A stretch of DNA of 64,000 bases, taken from positions 1 through 64,000 of the IMG/VR virus record IMGVR_UViG_3300021197_001365; one strand, 5' to 3'. The stretch comes from a virus. The notes under the pieces are model-generated. The model saw nothing but the letters and a program-made list of their open reading frames with translations, did no database searches and was not told where the DNA came from. Shown piece by piece: positions 149-11,053 of this stretch (positions within the stretch are counted from its first letter, which is position 1; each line of letters opens with the position of its first letter). The translations under genes and the position numbers were made by a program.

Positions 149-2920
149 TTAGAACGTATAGTTAAATCCTATGCTGTAGTTTTTGCCATACATATCGTAC
201 TGGCTTAATTGAGATTCGTTTCCCCAGTAGTAATATTCTGGTCTATTGTTTAAGTTCACTGCCTCTGCTTTAACAGTGAAGTTATCATTAACAGCATATT
301 TGACTGTTAGGTCCCATTGTATAAAGTCACCAACAAATCTACTATTGTTAACACTTACTTCCCCAATGTCGCCATCTTCATCTGCTAACCAATCTAAGTA
401 ATCACTTCTATAGTTACCAGCAACTCTTATATCCCATGCACCTTTGTCGTAGCCAAAGTTAACGTTAGCAGCTTTATCGGCTAACTTACGGAACGAAGTT
501 GTAAATGATACATCATCTTCAAAGTTAAATGCGCTTTCACTGTCTGTTAGTGTAAAGTTAGTTGCTACATACAATCCATTTTCCCATCCGTATTGTGCAT
601 TAAGTTCTATGCCATTAATTCTGCTGTCATCTGCATTGATCCATGTTTCAACACCATCATTAAACGATATGCCGTTGAACACACCATTGCGTTGGTATGT
701 TGGATAAATTGCATTAGCAATACTCTTATGGAAGTAACCCACTGCAAAGTAAGTCATACCTTCTCCATAATATTCTAAACTTAAATCAAAGTTATCTGCT
801 TCGTATGGCTTTAGGTTTGGATTACCAATGCTACCACTTGTATCACCTGATGTGTCTACATCATAATCTGTGATAGGAGCAGTTTCTTTGAATCCTGGTC
901 TGCTTAAACCTCTCCACAATGCACCACGTACTTGCCAATTGTCTGTGAGCCAATGCTTAACAGTTACACTAGGAGCAACAAAGCCATAGTCATTCTCTGC
1001 ATAAGTTTTATTGCCGTCTTGGTCGTATGCTGTACTTTCAAAGTCAGTATGCTCATAACGTACACCTGCAATAATAGTAGTTTTTTCTAATTCAACTGTG
1101 CGTTGTGCATAAACACTATTAATTGTTTCATCAGTTATAAAATCTCTGCTGATGTCATCGCTGAAATCTACTGTCATTTGGTCAGTTAGACTTCTAAGGT
1201 TATATGTTTCCTGTGCAGTCATATGATTACCAAACACTTGATTTGGAAAGAACCAACCAGGCGCAGTTGTAAATTCAAAGTCTGCCATAGTCATATCGTC
1301 CCATTCATACGCAATAATATAATCATCTACATCCTTAGTTCTGCCTCTGTACTTGTAACCTACCTTCCATAACCCGTTGTCTGCGTTTATTTGAAATGTA
1401 GTTTCGCTATCTTTACTGACATTACTCCACATTTCAAAAGCATCAAACTCTAAGTTCTCTGAATTACGCAAAGTATCATCTACAGGTGTAACAAATGGAT
1501 GAACAGGATTGCTCCAATCAAATACTGCACCACTGTCTTTGTCGTAGTTTCTAAATGTAATGTCAGCATTATCGCTGTCATCTTCTTCAGCCCAACTATA
1601 ACTTAGTTGCGAGTCTACTGCCCAATCAGCCATATCAAATTCTGCACCAAGGTTCATAGCACCTATAGTTCTTGTTTCATATCGCTGTCTTGTTTCTGCA
1701 TCGTGTCTAACTCTGCTGGACAACATACTGTTTTCAAAAGGCTCAGCCATTTTGATTTTGCCATATTCATTTTTAAAACGAATCTCATCTTCTTCATACT
1801 GGTTGTACAAAATATTAGCAAATACCACAGCACCACTTTCTAACAATGTGTTGATGTCATAACTAAATCCGTAACGCTCTCTGGTTAAGTCATAATAGCG
1901 TAACTCAAAGTCATCATTCATGTATCCATCTTCCCAGCCAAATCCAGTTTCATTATTATAACTTTCAATGTTCTTTGAACTGTAAGTTAGTCCCATGATG
2001 TGAGCAGTGTTGTCTGTAATACTGTCGCCATATGTTACGCTAAAGTTAGGAGCTTGTTCATAGTCTGTATACTCCGCAAACTTACTGCTAACTTTTACTT
2101 TTAACAACATTTCATCTAAGTCAGTTGGCTTCTTGGTATTAAATTCAATTCTGCCGCCAATGCTGTCTGAATCCATTTCAGGTGTTAAAGTTTTTGAAAC
2201 TGTAATACTGTCCATAAGTTCAGTGGGTATGCCGTCCATTATTACTGAACGTCCGTTTTCAGGTGCAACCATACTAGCACCGTTTACTGCTACACTGTTT
2301 AAGTCTGAACTTAATCCTCTAATTGTAACATAACGTCCTTCGCCCTGATCATTTTCTACACTTATACCACTTAATCTTCTAATGGCGTCTGCGGCTGTTG
2401 TATCAGGAAAGTTGCCTAATGCATCTGAGTCTACAACACTGATAATACCATCAGCCATCATCTGTTTGTCTACTGCTCTCATAAGTGTTGCTCTGGTTCC
2501 TACAACAAGCACTTCTTCAACAGTAGGGTCGTACGTTGGAGTGTTATCTCTGTATTGTTGAAACTCTTCAACAACTTCTTCTATTGGTGCATTTACTAGA
2601 AGTACTCTTGCATTTACAATGCCCATTTCAGTTAATGCATCATATCTGTGGTGCCCATCAATAATATAATATTGCTGATCGATAACCAAAGGCCTATAAG
2701 TATTTTCTTGTGCCTTGATTAATCTCTTCTCTTGCTTCTTTAAGTTTTGAACTCGTTGAGTCTGCACAGGAATTAAACTGCTTACAGGTACTTCTGTTGC
2801 AGTAAATTCAAATTGTGATTGTTCTAGGATTTCTTGATTTAGTTGGGGGAGTTGATTTCTGTCATATTGTGCAAATACAATAGTAGGCACCAACAGCATT
2901 GCTAAAAATAAATAACGCAT
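149..2920 (-). CDS. TonB-dependent outer-membrane receptor with N-terminal ParB/Srx-like domain
   Basis: Likely start MRYLFLAM at 2920 (GGAGAG SD); signal peptide; PLVID..IIDGHHRY motif; TonB box VEEVLVVGTR; plug motifs (NFPDTTAADAIRRLSG, GEGRYVTIRGL, DSIGGRI); barrel ending in C-terminal Phe (GFNYTF). Confidence 0.93.
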   Translation of the reverse strand: MRYLFLAMLLVPTIVFAQYDRNQLPQLNQEILEQSQFEFTATEVPVSSLIPVQTQRVQNLKKQEKRLIKAQENTYRPLVIDQQYYIIDGHHRYDALTEMGIVNARVLLVNAPIEEVVEEFQQYRDNTPTYDPTVEEVLVVGTRATLMRAVDKQMMADGIISVVDSDALGNFPDTTAADAIRRLSGISVENDQGEGRYVTIRGLSSDLNSVAVNGASMVAPENGRSVIMDGIPTELMDSITVSKTLTPEMDSDSIGGRIEFNTKKPTDLDEMLLKVKVSSKFAEYTDYEQAPNFSVTYGDSITDNTAHIMGLTYSSKNIESYNNETGFGWEDGYMNDDFELRYYDLTRERYGFSYDINTLLESGAVVFANILYNQYEEDEIRFKNEYGKIKMAEPFENSMLSSRVRHDAETRQRYETRTIGAMNLGAEFDMADWAVDSQLSYSWAEEDDSDNADITFRNYDKDSGAVFDWSNPVHPFVTPVDDTLRNSENLEFDAFEMWSNVSKDSETTFQINADNGLWKVGYKYRGRTKDVDDYIIAYEWDDMTMADFEFTTAPGWFFPNQVFGNHMTAQETYNLRSLTDQMTVDFSDDISRDFITDETINSVYAQRTVELEKTTIIAGVRYEHTDFESTAYDQDGNKTYAENDYGFVAPSVTVKHWLTDNWQVRGALWRGLSRPGFKETAPITDYDVDTSGDTSGSIGNPNLKPYEADNFDLSLEYYGEGMTYFAVGYFHKSIANAIYPTYQRNGVFNGISFNDGVETWINADDSRINGIELNAQYGWENGLYVATNFTLTDSESAFNFEDDVSFTTSFRKLADKAANVNFGYDKGAWDIRVAGNYRSDYLDWLADEDGDIGEVSVNNSRFVGDFIQWDLTVKYAVNDNFTVKAEAVNLNNRPEYYYWGNESQLSQYDMYGKNYSIGFNYTF

Positions 2921-2963
2921 AATGCTCTCCTTTTGCTTTGGGTAAATTTTTACCACAGAAGAT

Positions 2964-4962: not shown

Positions 4963-5085
4963 ATGAGCCAACTGGAAAAAATCCAATTCACAATGGAAAT
5001 TATCCGCACGGTTTGCCCCGTCGTCATGGTGATACTGCAAATCGCCATCATCACCGGCCTTGTAATTATGGGCGATATGGGCTAG
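4963..5085 (+). CDS. 40-aa single-TM peptide
   Basis: GGAGG SD; MSQLEKIQFTMEIIRTVCPVVMVILQIAIITGLVIMGDMG. Confidence 0.6.
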   Translation: MSQLEKIQFTMEIIRTVCPVVMVILQIAIITGLVIMGDMG

Positions 5086-5090
5086 GGCTA

Positions 5091-5109
5091 GATGAGAACC
5101 ATTCTCATT
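5091..5109. promoter_or_regulatory. Fur-box-like inverted repeat 2
   Basis: GATGAGAACCATTCTCATT; core TGAGAAC-C-ATTCTCA is 11/14 to the 7-1-7 Fur motif. Confidence 0.55.
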
Positions 5110-5148
5110 TGGGCCAGGAAATAAAATAATCTTTTTTGCAAATAGGGC

Positions 5149-5178
5149 TTGACACCCCTGCATTTTTTGCGCTAAAAT
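5149..5178 (+). promoter_or_regulatory. Promoter TTGACA-N18-TAAAAT
   Basis: Upstream of the acidic mini-gene. Confidence 0.7.
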
Positions 5179-5221
5179 GTTTACATCAACTAGGGGATTG
5201 GCCCCATTTAAGGATAGAAAA

Positions 5222-5389
5222 ATGTCACACTACGTAAACGAAGCCAACGCCGAAGCCTGCTACGAAGAAGCCTGCGAAGCGGGTTACGCTTTTTTCGCCG
5301 AGGCGGACTGGGACGGCCAAGCGTTCGAGGCTTGGGTAAACTGGAAAACGGATGAGCTTCTTTCTGAGCTTCCCGACGGCTACCGTTAA
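5222..5389 (+). CDS. 55-aa highly acidic pre-early protein
   Basis: TAAGGA SD; 13 D/E versus 2 K/R; has its own promoter. Confidence 0.7.
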   Translation: MSHYVNEANAEACYEEACEAGYAFFAEADWDGQAFEAWVNWKTDELLSELPDGYR

Positions 5390-5405
5390 TGTTCCACATG
5401 GAACA
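5390..5405. promoter_or_regulatory. parS-like palindrome
   Basis: TGTTCCACATGGAACA, 15/16 to the chromosomal parS TGTTCCACGTGGAACA. Confidence 0.7.
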
Positions 5406-5412
5406 CCTCGCC

Positions 5413-5425
5413 CAACTCCTTGATT
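5413..5425 (-). promoter_or_regulatory. IHF consensus site
   Basis: Minus strand AATCAAGGAGTTG matches WATCAANNNNTTR exactly. Confidence 0.5.
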
Positions 5426-5452
5426 TATCAGGGATTTCGGCGCGGGGGCGCC

Positions 5453-5609
5453 AGTAGTAGTGCGACGACGATTTTCTTTGGTGGTGCCTGCGCCATTGTA
5501 CCAGTTCGAAAGCGATTTGTCAAGTCTTTTTTGCGGGTGTGCCCCAAATTGTTTTAAGTTGCCCTGGTCTTAAAAATTGCGCCGATTATAGTAGTAGTAC
5601 GACGACGAT
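5453..5609. repeat. Two copies of a 20-bp direct repeat
   Basis: AGTAGTAGTGCGACGACGAT (5453-5472) and AGTAGTAGTACGACGACGAT (5590-5609), 19/20 identical. Confidence 0.9.
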
Positions 5610-5715
5610 GTCAAGTACTTTTTGCACATTTGCCCAAAATAATTCGACGCGCTAGTCTCTGCCAGACCCCGTGCCCAACCCTGGTATTATATCATAACCC
5701 AGGCGGGGTTGTCAA
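5495..5715 (-). promoter_or_regulatory. Three tandem leftward sigma70 promoters with no downstream ORF
   Basis: TTGACA-17-TACAAT (5495-5523), TTGACA-18-TATAAT (5585-5614), TTGACA-18-TATAAT (5686-5715). Confidence 0.75.
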
Positions 5716-5882
5716 GTACTATTTAGGGTTTTCCTGCATATTGACAACTTACGCGCACTTATGGTACTATAATTCGACAAAATTTGCTACAATTAGACAA
5801 AATAAACCTTGACACGGGAAGGTCGTGTGCGGCCCCCCGGAGTTCGTTTGCGTTATCCTGGCGACCAATTCGCAAAAAAGTG

Positions 5883-5911
5883 TTGACAACTTGCCCAAAC
5901 TTTAGTATAAT
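5883..5911 (+). promoter_or_regulatory. Early promoter TTGACA-N17-TATAAT
   Basis: Exact consensus; a further rightward candidate TTGACA-18-TACTAT lies at 5741-5770. Confidence 0.85.
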
Positions 5912-5937
5912 AGTTACCATAAATCGGAGGACTATGC

Positions 5938-6126
5938 ATGAACGATATTCAATTCGAAGCCTTTAGCTTGTACGCGGGTATGCGTATGGAAGGTATGCCT
6001 AAGCTGGATGCCTTTCTATATACTATACAGTGTATGCTTCCAGAGGACGACTACCCCAACGGATACGACGATGGTGCAGTAGAGCTGTACTCTTGGTTGC
6101 GTCAGAAGGTGAAGCTGGATGGCTAA
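5938..6126 (+). CDS. Hypothetical small acidic protein
   Basis: GGAGG SD, first gene after the promoter. Confidence 0.7.
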   Translation: MNDIQFEAFSLYAGMRMEGMPKLDAFLYTIQCMLPEDDYPNGYDDGAVELYSWLRQKVKLDG

Positions 6127-6553
6127 AGTTAAGTACATAACAAAAGCTAAACGCACATGGACTAAGCACAAACGACAGCTTGTGCGTAATGCGTTTAAGC
6201 ACGCTTTTTGGGAGATGAATCTGTACAAACTTGATGTACATATTGATATTCGTCTAGTGGGAACACCAAATGCCCCAGGAGCCTGCACAGATGCTGAAAC
6301 CAAGTACGTTGTGCATATTGATGGAACACAAGACCCAGAAGACATCGTTGAGACTCTGTTTCACGAACTGCAACACGTTGTTCAATACGCTCTTGGCTAT
6401 TTACAAGACGCAGAAAGTAAAGTATACTGGTTAGGTAACTGGTACACCGGCGATTATCAAGACACCGCTACCTCTGACTACTGGGATGCACCTTGGGAAG
6501 TAGAAGCTCGCCAGGTTGCATGGAATATGTCAGAAAATTACTACCAAAACTAA
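6119..6553 (+). CDS. Zn metallopeptidase-like protein
   Basis: TLFHELQHVVQ (HExxH) and PWEVEAR motif. Confidence 0.8.
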   Translation: MAKVKYITKAKRTWTKHKRQLVRNAFKHAFWEMNLYKLDVHIDIRLVGTPNAPGACTDAETKYVVHIDGTQDPEDIVETLFHELQHVVQYALGYLQDAESKVYWLGNWYTGDYQDTATSDYWDAPWEVEARQVAWNMSENYYQN

Positions 6554-6635
6554 AAAAATTGTTGACAAAATGCTAAAACTACTCTATAATATATTTTCAA
6601 AAGTTGGAAAACAAACATTTTCGGGAGAAAAATTT

Positions 6636-6953
6636 ATGTCTGAAGCTACCAAAGTTGTAAACTACACTGACGAAATGGTTGAGACCATCGTTGCTACCTA
6701 CGAAGCTGCCCCTGAGCGCGCTACTGTTGACGCCCTTGCACAAAAATTTGGCAAGACTTCTCGTTCTATCATCGCTAAGCTGTCTACGCTTGGTATCTAT
6801 CAAGCTCCGGCTCGTGTTACCAAAACAGGTGTTCCTGTTGTCAAGAAGGAGACTTTGGTTGCTGAGATCAACAGCAAGCTCGGTGTTGAACTGCCTTCTC
6901 TGGTCAAGGCTAACAAGCAAGACCTCGAAGCACTTTTTGCGGCTCTCAGCTGA
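6636..6953 (+). CDS. A2-like DNA-binding paralog
   Basis: NYTDEM..LAQKFGKTSRSIIAKLSTLGIY..KKETLV..LPSLVKANK; promoter at 6562-6590. Confidence 0.7.
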   Translation: MSEATKVVNYTDEMVETIVATYEAAPERATVDALAQKFGKTSRSIIAKLSTLGIYQAPARVTKTGVPVVKKETLVAEINSKLGVELPSLVKANKQDLEALFAALS

Positions 6954-7036
6954 GAGTCGTACCCCAGGAGGTAGCCCATCTGCCTCCTTTCTTTTGTAAG
7001 TGCATTTGCTAAGTGTGCTTTCAAAAGGAGACTACC

Positions 7037-7300
7037 ATGAAAAATAATTTTGTTGCTAAAAACGCACATAAGTTCAATCGTGCAAACGTCATGGTTGATC
7101 GTAAAAAAGAAGCCAAAAAGTCTGGGTACAAGCAAGACCAGGCCTGGCTAGGTTTGGGTAATTTTGAACGCGAAATAATTTATGAATATTATGAGCGTTC
7201 TGACCATGCTGGGTTACACTCGTATCTCATGTGTGTTCTGAATTTAACGAGCAGTCAAATCTACGAAATAAAGCAAAGCCTGAGAGACGGAGTATCCTAA
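7037..7300 (+). CDS. Hypothetical protein with basic N-terminus
   Basis: AAGGAG SD before MKNNFVAKNAHKFNRA. Confidence 0.65.
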   Translation: MKNNFVAKNAHKFNRANVMVDRKKEAKKSGYKQDQAWLGLGNFEREIIYEYYERSDHAGLHSYLMCVLNLTSSQIYEIKQSLRDGVS

Positions 7301-7488
7301 TGGCTAAATTAAAAGAGAATGCTGATTCAGTATGTTTTCGAATACAGTCGTACATGATTGAAGCAAGTAACAACCCCGCTCCGATTCTGCATATGAATGC
7401 TGACGGTTTAGTGATTGAGTACAATGATGAAGAAACTGGACACAAGATTTTTGAGAAAATATCTGACGTTCAAAAAAATAATTCTTGA
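7300..7488 (+). CDS. Hypothetical protein
   Basis: TAATG-coupled start MAKLKENAD, GGAG SD. Confidence 0.6.
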   Translation: MAKLKENADSVCFRIQSYMIEASNNPAPILHMNADGLVIEYNDEETGHKIFEKISDVQKNNS

Positions 7489-7520
7489 CTTTTTGTGGTC
7501 ACTTCAAGTATAATATCTTT

Positions 7521-8059
7521 TGAAAAGTCGGAAATAGACCAAGTTTTGAGGAAGTCATGGACGCCAAGGTGTGCTACCCACCTGCGATAAGACAGTAAAG
7601 ATCCCGGTAAAAGTTAACTCGGCCTATCCGGAGCCTCAGCCCATTTGTTCCACCTTCGTTGACCCCGCCGTGTACAGGTTGAAAGGCATCGTCAGTGGAA
7701 CAAGTGCTAATGCGGAATGGCAAAGCACGTTAAAAAGTACCATTTCAGTGTGCGTGGCGCACTAGTTAGTCCACACGCTCTACTCCGAAGCGTCCAAATG
7801 TCGGCAGTACGTTTAGAAGGCGTATAGCTTCTATCCAGTTAAGGTTTGGTGCGATTTCTACCACTGGGATATCAAAAAGAAAAATGCGGTAAGAGTGTAA
7901 ACGCGATACATTCTTAGGTACGTGAGGAAGGCGGTGCGTATCACTATAACTATAGAAGTCTTACTGACAACAGTCTATTATTGCAAAGAGGCGTCGAAAA
8001 CCTTGACTGTGGAAGGAAGGCGGAGGAATCCCTGCATAGAAATATGTGGGGATTTTTTT
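7521..8059 (+). ncRNA. Large structured non-coding RNA candidate (~500 nt), class unknown
   Basis: Own promoter (7485-7514) and terminator (8027-8059); no SD-led ORF; nested 5'/3' pairing and many internal helices. Confidence 0.75.
8027..8059 (+). terminator. Intrinsic terminator
   Basis: AATCCCTGCATA-GAAA-TATGTGGGGATT plus T-run. Confidence 0.85.
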
Positions 8060-8165
8060 ATGCGTGTTCAAAAATATTTCTTGACATTCTTGTTGAAATT
8101 TGAGATAATACATGAGTCTGAAATCTAAGGAGAAAATTCTATGCTGACAATTGGAGGTACTAAGT

Positions 8166-8519
8166 ATGGGTGACATTATTGATTTTCGAAGTAGAAAGAA
8201 GTATCCACAAGATGCTGAGACTTCTGTAATTATGAACAGGCTTAATAACCTGCAAGAAGCTCTGCGTGACGTTTATAAGCATATCGAGGACGGTTGGAAC
8301 AGTATGCAAGTGATGGAAACTGAGTGTGAGAAAGTAGAAAAAGCATACGACTCAGTCCTCTGCGACCTTGGCGAGGTTATGGGAGCCGAAAATATCCCAG
8401 TAGAGTTCCTGGAGTACTCAAAAAATGTAAGAGTAGACTGCCAGGATGACGGAAGTTTTAAGTTGGTTTGGGAACCAGATCAGGATTTTCACATTATTTT
8501 TACACCCGAAGAGGATTAA
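8166..8519 (+). CDS. Hypothetical coiled-coil protein
   Basis: GGAGG SD before MGDIIDF; promoter at 8081-8109. Confidence 0.7.
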   Translation: MGDIIDFRSRKKYPQDAETSVIMNRLNNLQEALRDVYKHIEDGWNSMQVMETECEKVEKAYDSVLCDLGEVMGAENIPVEFLEYSKNVRVDCQDDGSFKLVWEPDQDFHIIFTPEED

Positions 8520-8828
8520 ATGAACTATACAAAAGACCAAACAGAGTACATGATTGAGAAGTACAAGACAAACCCGTCTAGGGATACAGTAGAGGAGCTA
8601 GCAGATGAATTTTCGAAGAGTATTAAGTCGATTATTGGCAAGTTATCACGGGAGGGTGTATATCGCAGAGAGGTCTACAGAACCAAAACCGGAGAGAACC
8701 CCGTTACGAAAGTCGAGATTGTATCCAATATTGCTGATGCGCTTGGAATCGAAATTGACAATTTGGCTGGTCTCGAGAAAGCTCCAAAAGCAACTCTCAA
8801 AGCAATCGAAAGAGTACTATCAGAATAA
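8520..8828 (+). CDS. A2-like DNA-binding paralog
   Basis: NYTKDQ..LADEFSKSIKSIIGKLSREGVY..TKVEIV..LAGLEKAPK; aligns with the 3410 and 6636 proteins. Confidence 0.75.
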   Translation: MNYTKDQTEYMIEKYKTNPSRDTVEELADEFSKSIKSIIGKLSREGVYRREVYRTKTGENPVTKVEIVSNIADALGIEIDNLAGLEKAPKATLKAIERVLSE

Positions 8829-8861
8829 CCCTTGTCAGGGGTCTCAACGGGGTTAAAAAGT

Positions 8862-9017
8862 ATGAAAGATATTATGTTTGTCCTGTGGTTTCTTTATGTC
8901 TCAGTATTCACAGTAATTACTTGGTTTACAAAGATAGGCTCTCTAGCAGAATTTTTAATATCAATACTAGTCTGGGTTATACTTGTATCTCTACCATTAA
9001 TACTCTTTCCAGATTAG
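8862..9017 (+). CDS. Small two-TM membrane protein
   Basis: Two hydrophobic segments. Confidence 0.5.
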   Translation: MKDIMFVLWFLYVSVFTVITWFTKIGSLAEFLISILVWVILVSLPLILFPD

Positions 9018-9149
9018 ACGCTTCTAGCACAAAATTTCCCCAAAGTAATAAAAAACTTTAGTCCAGTACCTTGTACGATGATCGCGAATTGGCGTAAGTT
9101 GAGCGTGTGAACAAAAAACGAAATTTGACTTAAGTGTGGAGGGGTTGTG

Positions 9150-9480
9150 GCGGGATCGTTAATGAGTTATTTGATTAACGGGGTCATTAACGATTGGTCG
9201 AAGTTTACTTTGACAGAAGCAAAGTAAGAATGGGATTATCGATAGATTCAATGCAACAACAAGCTAATTAGTGGGTACGCACTCTCTCTCGCTTACGCTT
9301 CGAGAGTGCTTATCGCACAAATAACTTTATGCACAGTATCTATCTTAGAGTTTAGTAGAATCTCGATTGACCGTATTGTTTAACAATTAGTATATATTTT
9401 ACCACACATTATGGCATAACACAAGTACTATTTTTCTATGGTGTCATTGATTTCCTGGGTTGAACGTACTCCAGGAAACG
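9150..9480. other. Structured non-coding locus (ncRNA or replication origin candidate)
   Basis: Within a ~550-bp gap without long ORFs; several inverted repeats and a leftward promoter (9396-9424). Confidence 0.55.
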
Positions 9481-9574
9481 TAAAAAAGTTTTAAACTAGA
9501 AGAGGGGATATGGTAAAAAACTTCTTGACATTTCGTTTTTTGTTTGCTATAATATAAGAAAATGGAGACTTAAA

Positions 9575-9775
9575 ATGCGTAAGTACTACATCGTGTGGTT
9601 CAAAAGTGGGCTAGAAATTTACTGGCTGAACACTTGGCTAGACTACTACGATGCCTTACGAGAAGCACAAAGTTTAAATCAGCGTGACTACAAAGCATAT
9701 TATTACGTTACCTTAGGAGAAATTAAAGATGGCAAAGCAAATGATCTACGACCCCGTTCTTACTCGCAAGTTTAG
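9575..9775 (+). CDS. Hypothetical protein
   Basis: Promoter at 9525-9553, GGAG SD. Confidence 0.6.
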   Translation: MRKYYIVWFKSGLEIYWLNTWLDYYDALREAQSLNQRDYKAYYYVTLGEIKDGKANDLRPRSYSQV

Positions 9776-9938
9776 AAAAGGGCGATTTTCTGGCAAGAAA
9801 GTAGTATCTCACGGTTCTTATCGAGCAAAGCGTAAGCCCAACTCACCTCTTCTTGAAAGAGCGGAGCGAGTAAAAGCTGCCTCCACCTTTGGAAAGAGTG
9901 CTGAGTTCAAGTTCGCTATCTACGGTATTTCAGCATGA
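9729..9938 (+). CDS. Small basic hypothetical protein
   Basis: AGGAG SD; K/R-rich. Confidence 0.7.
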   Translation: MAKQMIYDPVLTRKFRKGRFSGKKVVSHGSYRAKRKPNSPLLERAERVKAASTFGKSAEFKFAIYGISA

Positions 9939-10079
9939 CTCACATCGTACGAGAAGTCGTAAGGCCTGGACAGTACATTTTCAAAGTTTTTGACCTTCGT
10001 GGAGCATTGATGTATCACGGAGCATCCGAAAGTGTAGCAACTGCAACAGTGGAAAAATTAAAAAAACAGGAGAAAAAGC

Positions 10080-10295
10080 GTGAAAATCTTCCTACTAACT
10101 CTTGAAAACTATATGGCTACACTTGCGAGTATAGAAGGTGCATACTCTACCGCACACAAAGCAGGAGTAGCTGCACGATGCCTTCCCAAATCAGAGGGAG
10201 GTCTTACTCCGAGAGTGAAAGTGTTAGAGGTGGATGCTCCATTAGAGGTAGACATAGAACATATAGAAGATATATTTATAAAAGCCCGCTTATAG
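10080..10295 (+). CDS. Hypothetical protein
   Basis: AGGAG SD with GTG start; followed by the terminator AAAGCCC-GCTTATA-GGGCTTTTTTT. Confidence 0.6.
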   Translation: MKIFLLTLENYMATLASIEGAYSTAHKAGVAARCLPKSEGGLTPRVKVLEVDAPLEVDIEHIEDIFIKARL

Positions 10296-10303
10296 GGCTT
10301 TTT

Positions 10304-10495
10304 TTATATGACGTACAAATGGAGGGCATTTCGCAAGTAGAGGAGTGTAGAAAGTATACCGAGTGTCATCCCTGCGATCGTGATAATTTTTATACACGCA
10401 AACTCCAGTGGAGACAACTTGATTACGATGGTTGTAGATTCCTGTTCCTCCTTCCAGCACGAGGTAGAGCCAAAGAACTTCCAAAGATCTCTCAC
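10304..10495 (-). CDS. Small membrane protein
   Basis: ATGA-coupled to the MazG-like gene; hydrophobic C-terminus. Confidence 0.5.
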   Translation of the reverse strand: MRDLWKFFGSTSCWKEEQESTTIVIKLSPLEFACIKIITIAGMTLGILSTLLYLRNALHLYVI

Positions 10496-10878
10496 TGGTT
10501 TAGAATACTCTCTAAATCTGGGGCAAAGAATCCTGGCCCTTTCATTACCTTTCCATTCTCAGCTTTAATTGGTGTACCATCTTCACCGAGCTTACTCATA
10601 TTAGAAGCATGTACCTCAGTAAAACACTCATCAAGGTCAATACCAAATGTATGACCAGCACCGTAGACAACATATAATATGTCGGTGAGAGCATCTGCAA
10701 TTTCCACCATGTCTTTATTTGTGATAGCTTCAACCAGCTCATCTACTTCTTCTTGTATTAAATCTACCCGCAGTTCTCTCACAGCCCGGTCAGGCCAAGT
10801 CGGTTCTACAAGAACATCCTGGCCAAAGGCTTCCATGAAGTCGCCTACTAATTCAAAATTTGTCCCGTTTGAGCTCAT
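10492..10878 (-). CDS. MazG-like/PRA-PH all-alpha NTP pyrophosphohydrolase
   Basis: LIQEEVDEL..EIADALTDILYVVYG..VHASNMSK..GKVMKGP; start MSSNGT. Confidence 0.9.
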   Translation of the reverse strand: MSSNGTNFELVGDFMEAFGQDVLVEPTWPDRAVRELRVDLIQEEVDELVEAITNKDMVEIADALTDILYVVYGAGHTFGIDLDECFTEVHASNMSKLGEDGTPIKAENGKVMKGPGFFAPDLESILNQ

Positions 10879-11053
10879 TATCTTTTCGCCTCTTTTGTTC
10901 CCTCTTCTTTGCAGCTTGTTTTCCTTTATGCCGCACTGTAGAAGGTTTTTCATAATACTCTCGATTTCGATATTCAAATATAATCTCATTTGATTTCTTT
11001 TTAAATACACGAATCGCTCGTTCTACATTGTTGTTTCTTACTTTAACTCTCAT
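10853..11053 (-). CDS. rpsU: 30S ribosomal protein bS21
   Basis: VERAIRVFKKK..EYRNREYYEKPSTVR..AAKKR signature. Confidence 0.9.
   Translation of the reverse strand: MRVKVRNNNVERAIRVFKKKSNEIIFEYRNREYYEKPSTVRHKGKQAAKKREQKRRKDNELKRDKF

Follow-up and report, generated by a model that had tools for sequence, protein, structure and literature searches.

What is encoded by an interval of more than 500 nt that lies between a promoter and a terminator in the genome of an uncultured marine phage? The interval in question (7521-8059, plus strand) belongs to a 77.7-kb IMG/VR virus record, IMGVR_UViG_3300021197_001365, the first 64,000 nt of which were analysed here and are referred to as the window. The analysis leads to the answer that this is an independent early gene of a marine T5-like phage and that its product is a non-coding RNA of approx. 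540 nt; that the RNA is structured and belongs to a new family is held with high confidence. An earlier note on this DNA had described it as a large, ornate non-coding RNA with its own transcription unit and of no assignable class. Both parts of that description were borne out, the former by the promoter, the terminator and covariation in four domains, and the latter by Rfam scans. The transcription unit comprises the following features:

7485..7514, plus strand: sigma-70-type promoter with -35 element TTGACT (7485-7490), an 18-nt spacer and -10 element TATAAT (7509-7514); 11 of 12 positions match the consensus in a consensus scan
7521..8059, plus strand: transcribed non-coding RNA of ~539 nt, identified by promoter and terminator, covariation and the lack of a conserved open reading frame (ORF)
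8027..8059, plus strand: intrinsic terminator, a hairpin followed by seven U, identified from sequence and predicted fold

Both RNA ends, including the start near 7521, are predicted from sequence. Host RNA polymerase should initiate transcription at the consensus sigma-70 promoter and stop at the intrinsic terminator. Both signals had been noted earlier at the same positions, and both are retained in all 44 complete homologous loci, where the promoter is of the window type and the terminator stem is spelled differently in four versions.

Relatives of the RNA gene were reached through the downstream protein, which led to two syntenic loci, and then through exact-word scans with conserved stretches of the RNA unit, which matched 13 viral and 52 metagenome stretches. 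A check with nhmmer kept approx. 57 of these as true and discarded eight as chance; some represent the same contig in two collections. The 44 loci that are complete from promoter to terminator represent 34 distinct sequences, 476-690 nt in length; one more true member (L086) came from a second motif scan of viral contigs, which brings the number of distinct full-length versions to approx. 35. Three other matches of that scan, all in coding DNA, were chance. All relatives are found on contigs of uncultured T5-like phages and share the same synteny: the promoter, the terminator and the next promoter are kept, and the downstream gene is homologous throughout. A blastn search of 7400-8150 against 50,697 phage records gave no match, and a covariance model of the family, R1, found no credible match in four cultured Demerecviridae (Aeromonas phage TS3, Vibrio phage VspSw_1, Escherichia phage VEc33 and Vibrio phage phi 3). 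Weak R1 matches in cultured Demerecviridae (22 and 15.5 bits) were judged to be chance, as the conserved words and one stem are missing. Likewise, a 19-mer scan of prokaryote genomes yielded nine matches in unrelated metagenome-assembled genomes, none of which matches R1, and these were also attributed to chance. Judging from these searches, the RNA family appears so far to be restricted to this group of uncultured T5-like phages.

The RNA gene is a recombinational mosaic in which lineages have exchanged whole modules (pseudoknot 1, pseudoknot 2 and the 3' end) at conserved junctions. In the alignments, for example, the L024 version joins a window-like 5' third to an L013-like remainder. RNAalifold, applied to the mixed alignment over its whole length, did not give a consistent fold, as modules differ between versions; covariation was therefore analysed domain by domain, and two covariance models were used to obtain structure-consistent alignments. 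The results for the four domains are as follows, with the covariation score compared with that of shuffled alignments:

7832-7948: 31 pairs; 96.4% of cells paired (83.4% when shuffled); 18 pairs changed on both sides; score 0.376 versus 0.151
7701-7842: 23 pairs; 93.6% of cells paired; 8 pairs changed on both sides; score 0.261 versus 0.144
7548-7714: 20 pairs; 97.6% of cells paired; 6 pairs changed on both sides; score 0.161 versus 0.089
7636-7711 (long hairpin): 13 pairs; 97.5% of cells paired; 8 pairs changed on both sides; score 0.257 versus 0.122

Across the four domains, 94-98% of cells are paired and approx. 38 pairs have changed on both sides. In none of the domains does any of 500 shuffles reach the observed covariation score, a control that makes no correction for the relatedness of the sequences. 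When the 3' partners are slid by one to three columns, pairing falls to 22-49% in all four domains, and in domain 7832-7948 the slid controls score at most 0.09. These slid controls, together with the many independent pair types, argue that the covariation signal is real. Moreover, the tested structures contain 173 G-U cells and 21 A-C cells, which identifies the plus strand as the functional RNA and agrees with the earlier proposal that G-U pairs favour this strand. As predicted from these comparisons, the RNA is a conserved, ornate plus-strand fold that consists of a three-helix 5' domain, a branched hairpin, three H-type pseudoknots and further hairpins. Its elements are listed from 5' to 3':

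7554..7593, plus strand: local 5' domain of three stacked helices, GUC 7554-7556/GAC 7591-7593, CGC 7562-7564/GCG 7584-7586 and GGUG 7568-7571/CACC 7579-7582
7594..7643, plus strand: almost invariant stretch, in which CCGG 7604-7607 may pair with CCGG 7628-7631, enclosing a very small hairpin whose length varies
7645..7703, plus strand: long branched hairpin with outer stem 7645-7653/7695-7703, inner stem 7657-7664/7685-7691 and tip CC 7668-7669/GG 7677-7678
7704..7746, plus strand: H-type pseudoknot 1, GUGCU 7704-7708/AGCAC 7724-7728 crossed by GGAAUGG 7714-7720/CCAUUUC 7740-7746, with an A-rich third loop
7747..7805, plus strand: two variable hairpins, the first 7747-7753/7757-7763 or 7750-7757/7771-7778 and the second CCGA 7785-7788/UCGG 7801-7804
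7808..7833, plus strand: H-type pseudoknot 2, UACG 7808-7811/CGUA 7821-7824 crossed by UAGAAG 7814-7819/CUUCUA 7828-7833
7834..7887, plus strand: H-type pseudoknot 3, UCCAG 7834-7838/CUGGG 7864-7868 crossed by GCG 7851-7853 and UUUCU 7855-7859 pairing with AGAAA 7878-7882 and UGC 7885-7887
7890..7916, plus strand: 10-bp hairpin, stem 7890-7899/7907-7916, with the 7-nt loop AACGCGA 7900-7906
7917..7942, plus strand: hairpin of GGUACGUG 7917-7924 with UGCGUAUC 7935-7942 and a purine-rich loop
7943..8026, plus strand: exchangeable 3' module with a conserved palindrome, the single-stranded CUAUAG 7950-7955, the 3' strands of two proposed closing helices (7978-7985, 7990-7995) and a local hairpin

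In the 5' domain, the pair 7555/7592 is U-A in 21 sequences and C-G in 11, and the inner hairpin (GGUG/CACC) has three covarying pairs and a conserved UGCUACC loop; the CGC/GCG stem is invariant. The adjoining stretch 7594-7643 is invariant in 32 of 32 sequences, so that covariation speaks neither for nor against the CCGG/CCGG helix; in the L086 version, the C-A that flanks this helix is changed to U-A. The tip of the long hairpin carries, in the window, a 7-nt loop, GUGUACA (7670-7676), that contains the palindrome UGUACA. Pseudoknot 1 is proposed because both of its stems are kept: the first is invariant, and the second is 100% paired, with one pair G-C in 17 sequences and A-U in nine and two more alternating between G-U and G-C or A-U. 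In the two variable hairpins, where the alignment is imperfect, two and five pairs have changed on both sides and 80% and 92% of cells are paired.

The crossing stem of pseudoknot 2 occurs as UAGAAG/CUUCUA, CAGAAG/CUUCUG, CAAAAG/CUUUUG or CGGAAG/CUUCUG. A second sequence type at the same site has the same topology in other letters (CCCC/GGGG crossed by GUGUAC/GUACAC and its variants), and the first stem is invariant within each type. Both crossing stems of pseudoknot 3 covary: its closing pair, 7834/7868, is of five types (U-G 13, A-U 8, G-C 6, C-G 4, U-A 2), and five pairs of the crossing stem have changed on both sides. In hairpin 7890-7916, nine of ten pairs have changed on both sides and 99.7% of cells are paired; in hairpin 7917-7942, 99.6% of cells are paired and three pairs have changed on both sides. 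The internal helices pointed out earlier in CATTTGTTCCAC/GTGGAACAAGTG, GAATGG/CCATTT, TAGAAG/CTTCTA and TAAGAGTGTA/TACATTCTTA are real and covarying, and the coordinates of all complementary words had been given exactly. The AGTGTGC/GCGCACT helix did not hold up as a family feature: it is specific to window-like versions, and the homologous hairpin of the relatives fits 7750-7757/7771-7778 better.

The 3' module is swapped between lineages. Its local hairpin, GAGG 7988-7991/CCUU 8001-8004, covaries at three pairs (G-C 15/A-U 7, A-U 19/G-C 5 and G-C 19/A-U 5). In 10 of 34 versions, from several lineages, the whole module is replaced by a short GAACU...AGUUC hairpin, and other versions add 3' modules of approx. 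45 or 170 nt. The latter module is located just before the terminator (L013:11230-11529, and also in L023, L031, L038, L067, L045 and L051); it has covarying stems of its own (CUACUC/GAGUAG versus CUACUU/AAGUAG) and a CUGACGAG word, and it gave no Rfam match. The hammerhead-like appearance of CUGACGAG in these L013-type versions was also considered and was dropped, as no Rfam match was obtained.

It had further been proposed that the two ends of the RNA zip together through four nested helices, and this part of the earlier description stands only in part. Among the 24 versions that possess the 3' module, two of the four helices are not conserved. Helix AGTCATGG/CCTTGACT contains C-A, A-C or C-C mismatches in many relatives; in particular, a C-A mismatch is found in six of the 24 versions, those with C at 7555, and these are exactly the versions in which the local partner 7592 makes the compensating change. 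Pairing of CAGTAA with TTACTG is limited to window-like versions. The other two helices, GACGCC/GGCGTC and TGCGATAA/TTATTGCA, have invariant 5-bp cores, so that covariation cannot judge them, and they compete with the local CGC/GCG stem. In addition, part of the 3' strand of the zipper sits in the covarying local hairpin 7988-7991/8001-8004, and the strand is missing altogether from the 10 versions with the short replacement hairpin. Since two helices fail, the 3' strand is dispensable and covariation favours the local 5' domain, end-to-end closure would be at most an optional feature rather than part of the family architecture.

No known RNA class accounts for the unit. Rfam 15 cmscan of the whole window at gathering thresholds gave no match, and a scan at E<=10 of the window, L012 and L013 versions of the unit returned only chance-level matches to snoRNA and small RNA families. 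ARAGORN found nothing inside the unit. In particular, neither Rfam nor ARAGORN detected tmRNA, tRNA, RNase P RNA, group I or II introns, known ribozymes or riboswitches in the unit, and the covariance models of ROOL (RF03087), GOLLD (RF01998) and OLE (RF01071) matched neither the whole window nor three versions of the unit. A literature search found no published description of this RNA. Two further ideas were tried and rejected: an RNase P-like or tRNA-like reading of the GGAAGUC words and the GUCGAAA loop, in which by eye the topology is different and for which no model or ARAGORN match was obtained, and a CsrA-type GGA sponge, as a count on the sequence showed GGA to be about as frequent as base composition predicts.

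Public sequencing data contain a hint that the RNA unit is expressed in marine samples. Part of the unit occurs in 20 public runs, 15 of which are recorded as RNA, and four marine RNA libraries were aligned to window positions 6000-10000. Three studies each gave one near-identical contig of 252-267 nt lying wholly inside 7665-7942 and no contig on the flanking genes; the fourth library gave pieces at 7583-7635, 7754-7803 and 7895-8044. In one marine RNA library, the contig of a relative reaches a depth of 105. Further downstream, library X5 contains contigs over 9082-9349 at depth 16-19, with joints that skip 8091-9159 and 9189-9269 and indicate that relatives differ there by insertions or deletions.

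Could the interval act as something other than an RNA gene? It could, in principle, encode one or two small proteins, since ORFs 7571-7765 and 7922-8128 are both open in the window. However, both start with GTG, inspection of the sequence shows no ribosome-binding site ahead of either, and in each of the other 33 versions both are broken by indels that shift the frame and by in-frame stops, which upholds the earlier statement that the unit has no ORF led by a Shine-Dalgarno sequence and leaves this explanation with a negligible probability. The 5' two-thirds of the RNA are more conserved than the flanking genes, yet they contain 1- and 2-nt indels. An element that acts at the DNA level (e.g., an origin of replication, an array of protein-binding sites or a group of decoy restriction sites) would fit the early location of the region and the several loops that spell palindromic 6-mers of the type II restriction-site kind; it would not explain why helices are kept by compensatory changes, why the G-U excess makes sense only for a plus-strand RNA, why the unit has its own promoter and terminator, or why it appears in RNA libraries without its flanks, and it is regarded as highly improbable. 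Slightly less improbable, although still very unlikely, is a long 5' leader or cis-regulatory element that acts on the downstream gene (8166-8519) via terminator read-through. That gene lies close by on the same strand, and the arrangement is syntenic in all relatives, but the strong seven-U terminator is conserved, the gene has a ribosome-binding site and a conserved consensus promoter of its own (8081-8109), no riboswitch family matches the unit, and the RNA-library contigs end inside it. The unit shows what is generally expected of a structured non-coding RNA gene: a promoter and terminator of its own, the lack of a conserved ORF, compensatory changes and G-U strand asymmetry.

The loops of this RNA suggest how it might work. 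The 7-nt loop of hairpin 7890-7916 occurs as AACGCGA, ACCGCGA, UUCGCGG, UCUGCAG or ACCAUGG, each of which contains a palindrome (CGCG, CUGCAG or CCAUGG), and two versions with a longer loop contain the palindrome GUUGCAAC, as read from the alignment. The palindrome content of the 7-nt loops at 7900-7906 was not reached in any of 20000 shuffles. Moreover, the tip loop of the long hairpin contains UGUACA or UGGCCA in approx. half of the versions, including that of the window, and is a GACG tetraloop in the remainder. An RNA that contains CUGCAG, CCAUGG or UGGCCA has a single copy of the word, and the same is true of UGUACA in 13 of the 16 versions with this word; thus, in most versions these 6-nt words have no partner within the same chain. 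In a cryo-EM study of OLE, ROOL and GOLLD, loops that switch palindromes were taken as evolutionary evidence for symmetric intermolecular kissing loops (PMC12286853).

By analogy, copies of the marine RNA may associate with one another through their palindromic loops, a proposal whose chances are put at slightly under even. Self-complementary words are kept as letters change in loop 7900-7906, in many versions in loop 7670-7676 and possibly in the single-stranded CUAUAG 7950-7955; in the proposed mechanism, the loops of one copy would form symmetric kissing contacts with those of a second copy. The contacts would be intermolecular because adjacent bases within one loop cannot pair together. 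With two or three docking sites per chain, dimers or closed multimers could form, like those solved for OLE, ROOL and GOLLD. As to function, the best guess is a scaffold or shell that consists of RNA only, is produced early in infection and would hold or shield a host or phage component. A speculative extension of this analogy, considered rather unlikely, would make the RNA the first member of one more class of phage particles that self-assemble from RNA only; its copies would join through the palindromic sites into a closed multimer resembling the ROOL and GOLLD cages, and the exchangeable 3' module would carry lineage-specific cargo or contacts.

The main competitor is a structured RNA that acts as a single chain or together with proteins, e.g., as a ribozyme, a protein-binding scaffold or decoy, or a host-factor sponge, whose palindromic loops would bind proteins or make tertiary contacts within the chain. 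Such an RNA is equally well supported by the evidence for a conserved fold; long single-stranded stretches without variation, e.g., 7594-7635, are characteristic of catalytic cores and binding sites; and only one palindromic loop is universal. However, no Rfam ribozyme or ribonucleoprotein RNA matches the unit, the neighbouring genes have no recognisable RNA-binding domain, and loops that change their letters and remain self-complementary are hard to reconcile with one protein site. In addition, the intramolecular tertiary pairing that was tested, between the purine-rich loop 7925-7934 and the pyrimidine run 7663-7669, failed, as 2543 of 5000 permutations were at least as good. This competing explanation is considered a real possibility, if not a probable one.

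An early, ornate non-coding RNA gene whose product self-associates is, as a whole, mildly favoured as the best explanation, and several observations weigh against it. The single-sequence fold energy of the plus strand is unremarkable (z -1.64, with 6 of 100 shuffles folding as well; z -0.48 for the minus strand), so that it is the comparison with relatives that carries the case. The RNA-library data consist of assembled contigs, from which strand, ends and level are not readable and in which DNA carry-over is possible. The palindrome in the window's own 7900-7906 loop is only 4 nt long (CGCG), and the GACG tetraloop found in approx. half of the versions leaves only one universal kissing site. 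Furthermore, the loop variants are few (four words) and are not independent samples, palindromes also serve as protein and restriction-enzyme sites, and the gene has no tRNA island beside it, unlike many ROOL and GOLLD loci.

A comparison with other large RNAs shows both common features and clear differences. ROOL forms an RNA-only octamer via kissing loops and A-minor contacts (PMC12286853). Like the marine RNA, it is encoded by a stand-alone phage gene, is approx. 500-600 nt long (476-690 nt here), has several pseudoknots and has no known protein partner, and the loop features of the marine RNA suggest similar docking. However, the ROOL model gives no match even at E<=10, the helices and conserved words differ, and ROOL, which comes from rumen and Firmicutes phages rather than marine T5-like phages, often adjoins tRNA islands, whereas no tRNA genes lie near the marine RNA. 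In GOLLD, the symmetric kissing loop L21a switches palindromes across relatives (PMC12286853), as does loop 7900-7906 here, and GOLLD is likewise a large, ornate phage RNA with a conserved and a variable part. Nevertheless, its model does not match, it is larger (often >800 nt) and is usually found beside tRNAs, and its arrangement is the reverse of that in the marine RNA, which is conserved in the 5' two-thirds and variable at the 3' end. The marine RNA resembles ROOL and GOLLD in build and, as proposed, in mode of action; because there is no model match and there are no tRNA neighbours, it is considered a family separate from both.

OLE is an ornate RNA of approx. 600 nt that dimerises through kissing loop L9.3, the internal palindrome of which covaries (GGCC, GAUC, AGCU) (PMC12286853). 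OLE occurs in bacteria of the phylum Bacillota and acts together with proteins (PMC12054373). Its palindromic loop resembles the putative kissing loop of the marine RNA; OLE differs in being bacterial and protein-associated, and its model finds no match in the marine RNA. Other viral RNAs are also joined by loop-loop pairing, namely the prohead RNA (pRNA) of phage phi29 and the HIV-1 dimerisation initiation site. The latter is a 6-nt palindrome in a hairpin loop and is part of the genome rather than a separate gene; pRNA is much smaller and pairs two different loops. The Rfam scan of the RNA unit at E<=10 gave no match to phi29 pRNA.

The genome that carries the gene is that of a distant, uncultured T5-like siphovirus, as judged from protein matches. 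The assignment is based on PHROG matches in the record (a D5-like regulator, a family-A DNA polymerase, an SbcC-like nuclease, a tape measure protein and a major tail protein) and on the polymerase, whose best tblastn relatives are from Demerecviridae, with an identity of only ~43%. The proteins that neighbour the RNA gene matched no informative family. On either side of the RNA gene region, small paralogous proteins are encoded (6633-6950 and 8520-8825), both of which match phrog_323 and phrog_1725 (D5-like regulators, DNA-binding proteins). Nearly each small gene of the early region 5000-11000 has its own promoter, and 28 matches to the sigma-70 consensus were found there versus 11 expected, several of them perfect (12/12). 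The left-end ORF (149-2956, minus strand, 935 aa) has a single, weak PHROG match (phrog_2859, E 1.4e-7).

ARAGORN detected neither tmRNA nor tRNA in the 64-kb window. In many relatives, a permuted tmRNA gene of alphaproteobacterial type is located 2-4 kb downstream of the large RNA, e.g., L012:5273-5694 on the minus strand; it is also present in L011, L015, L016, L033, L041, L044, L051, L058 and L063. These tmRNAs match Rfam RF01849 at 93 bits and RF04321 at 112 bits and carry the tags ANDDVYTLAA, ANDDIYALAA or ANDDVYALAA. They suggest that the hosts are marine bacteria, probably Alphaproteobacteria, and that the early region is a neighbourhood of RNA genes.

Large, ornate non-coding RNAs are rare, and OLE, ROOL, GOLLD and raiA serve as test cases for RNA quaternary structure. 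The marine RNA joins them as an independent class, and its source, uncultured marine T5-like phages, represents another phage group and another habitat. Its compact conserved core, three pseudoknots and letter-switching palindromes make multimerisation of an RNA of approx. 540 nt directly testable, and the naturally swapped 3' modules offer a handle on the part that carries function. If self-assembly proves true, this would be the third unrelated self-assembling phage RNA, which would argue for a general phage strategy rather than two curiosities.

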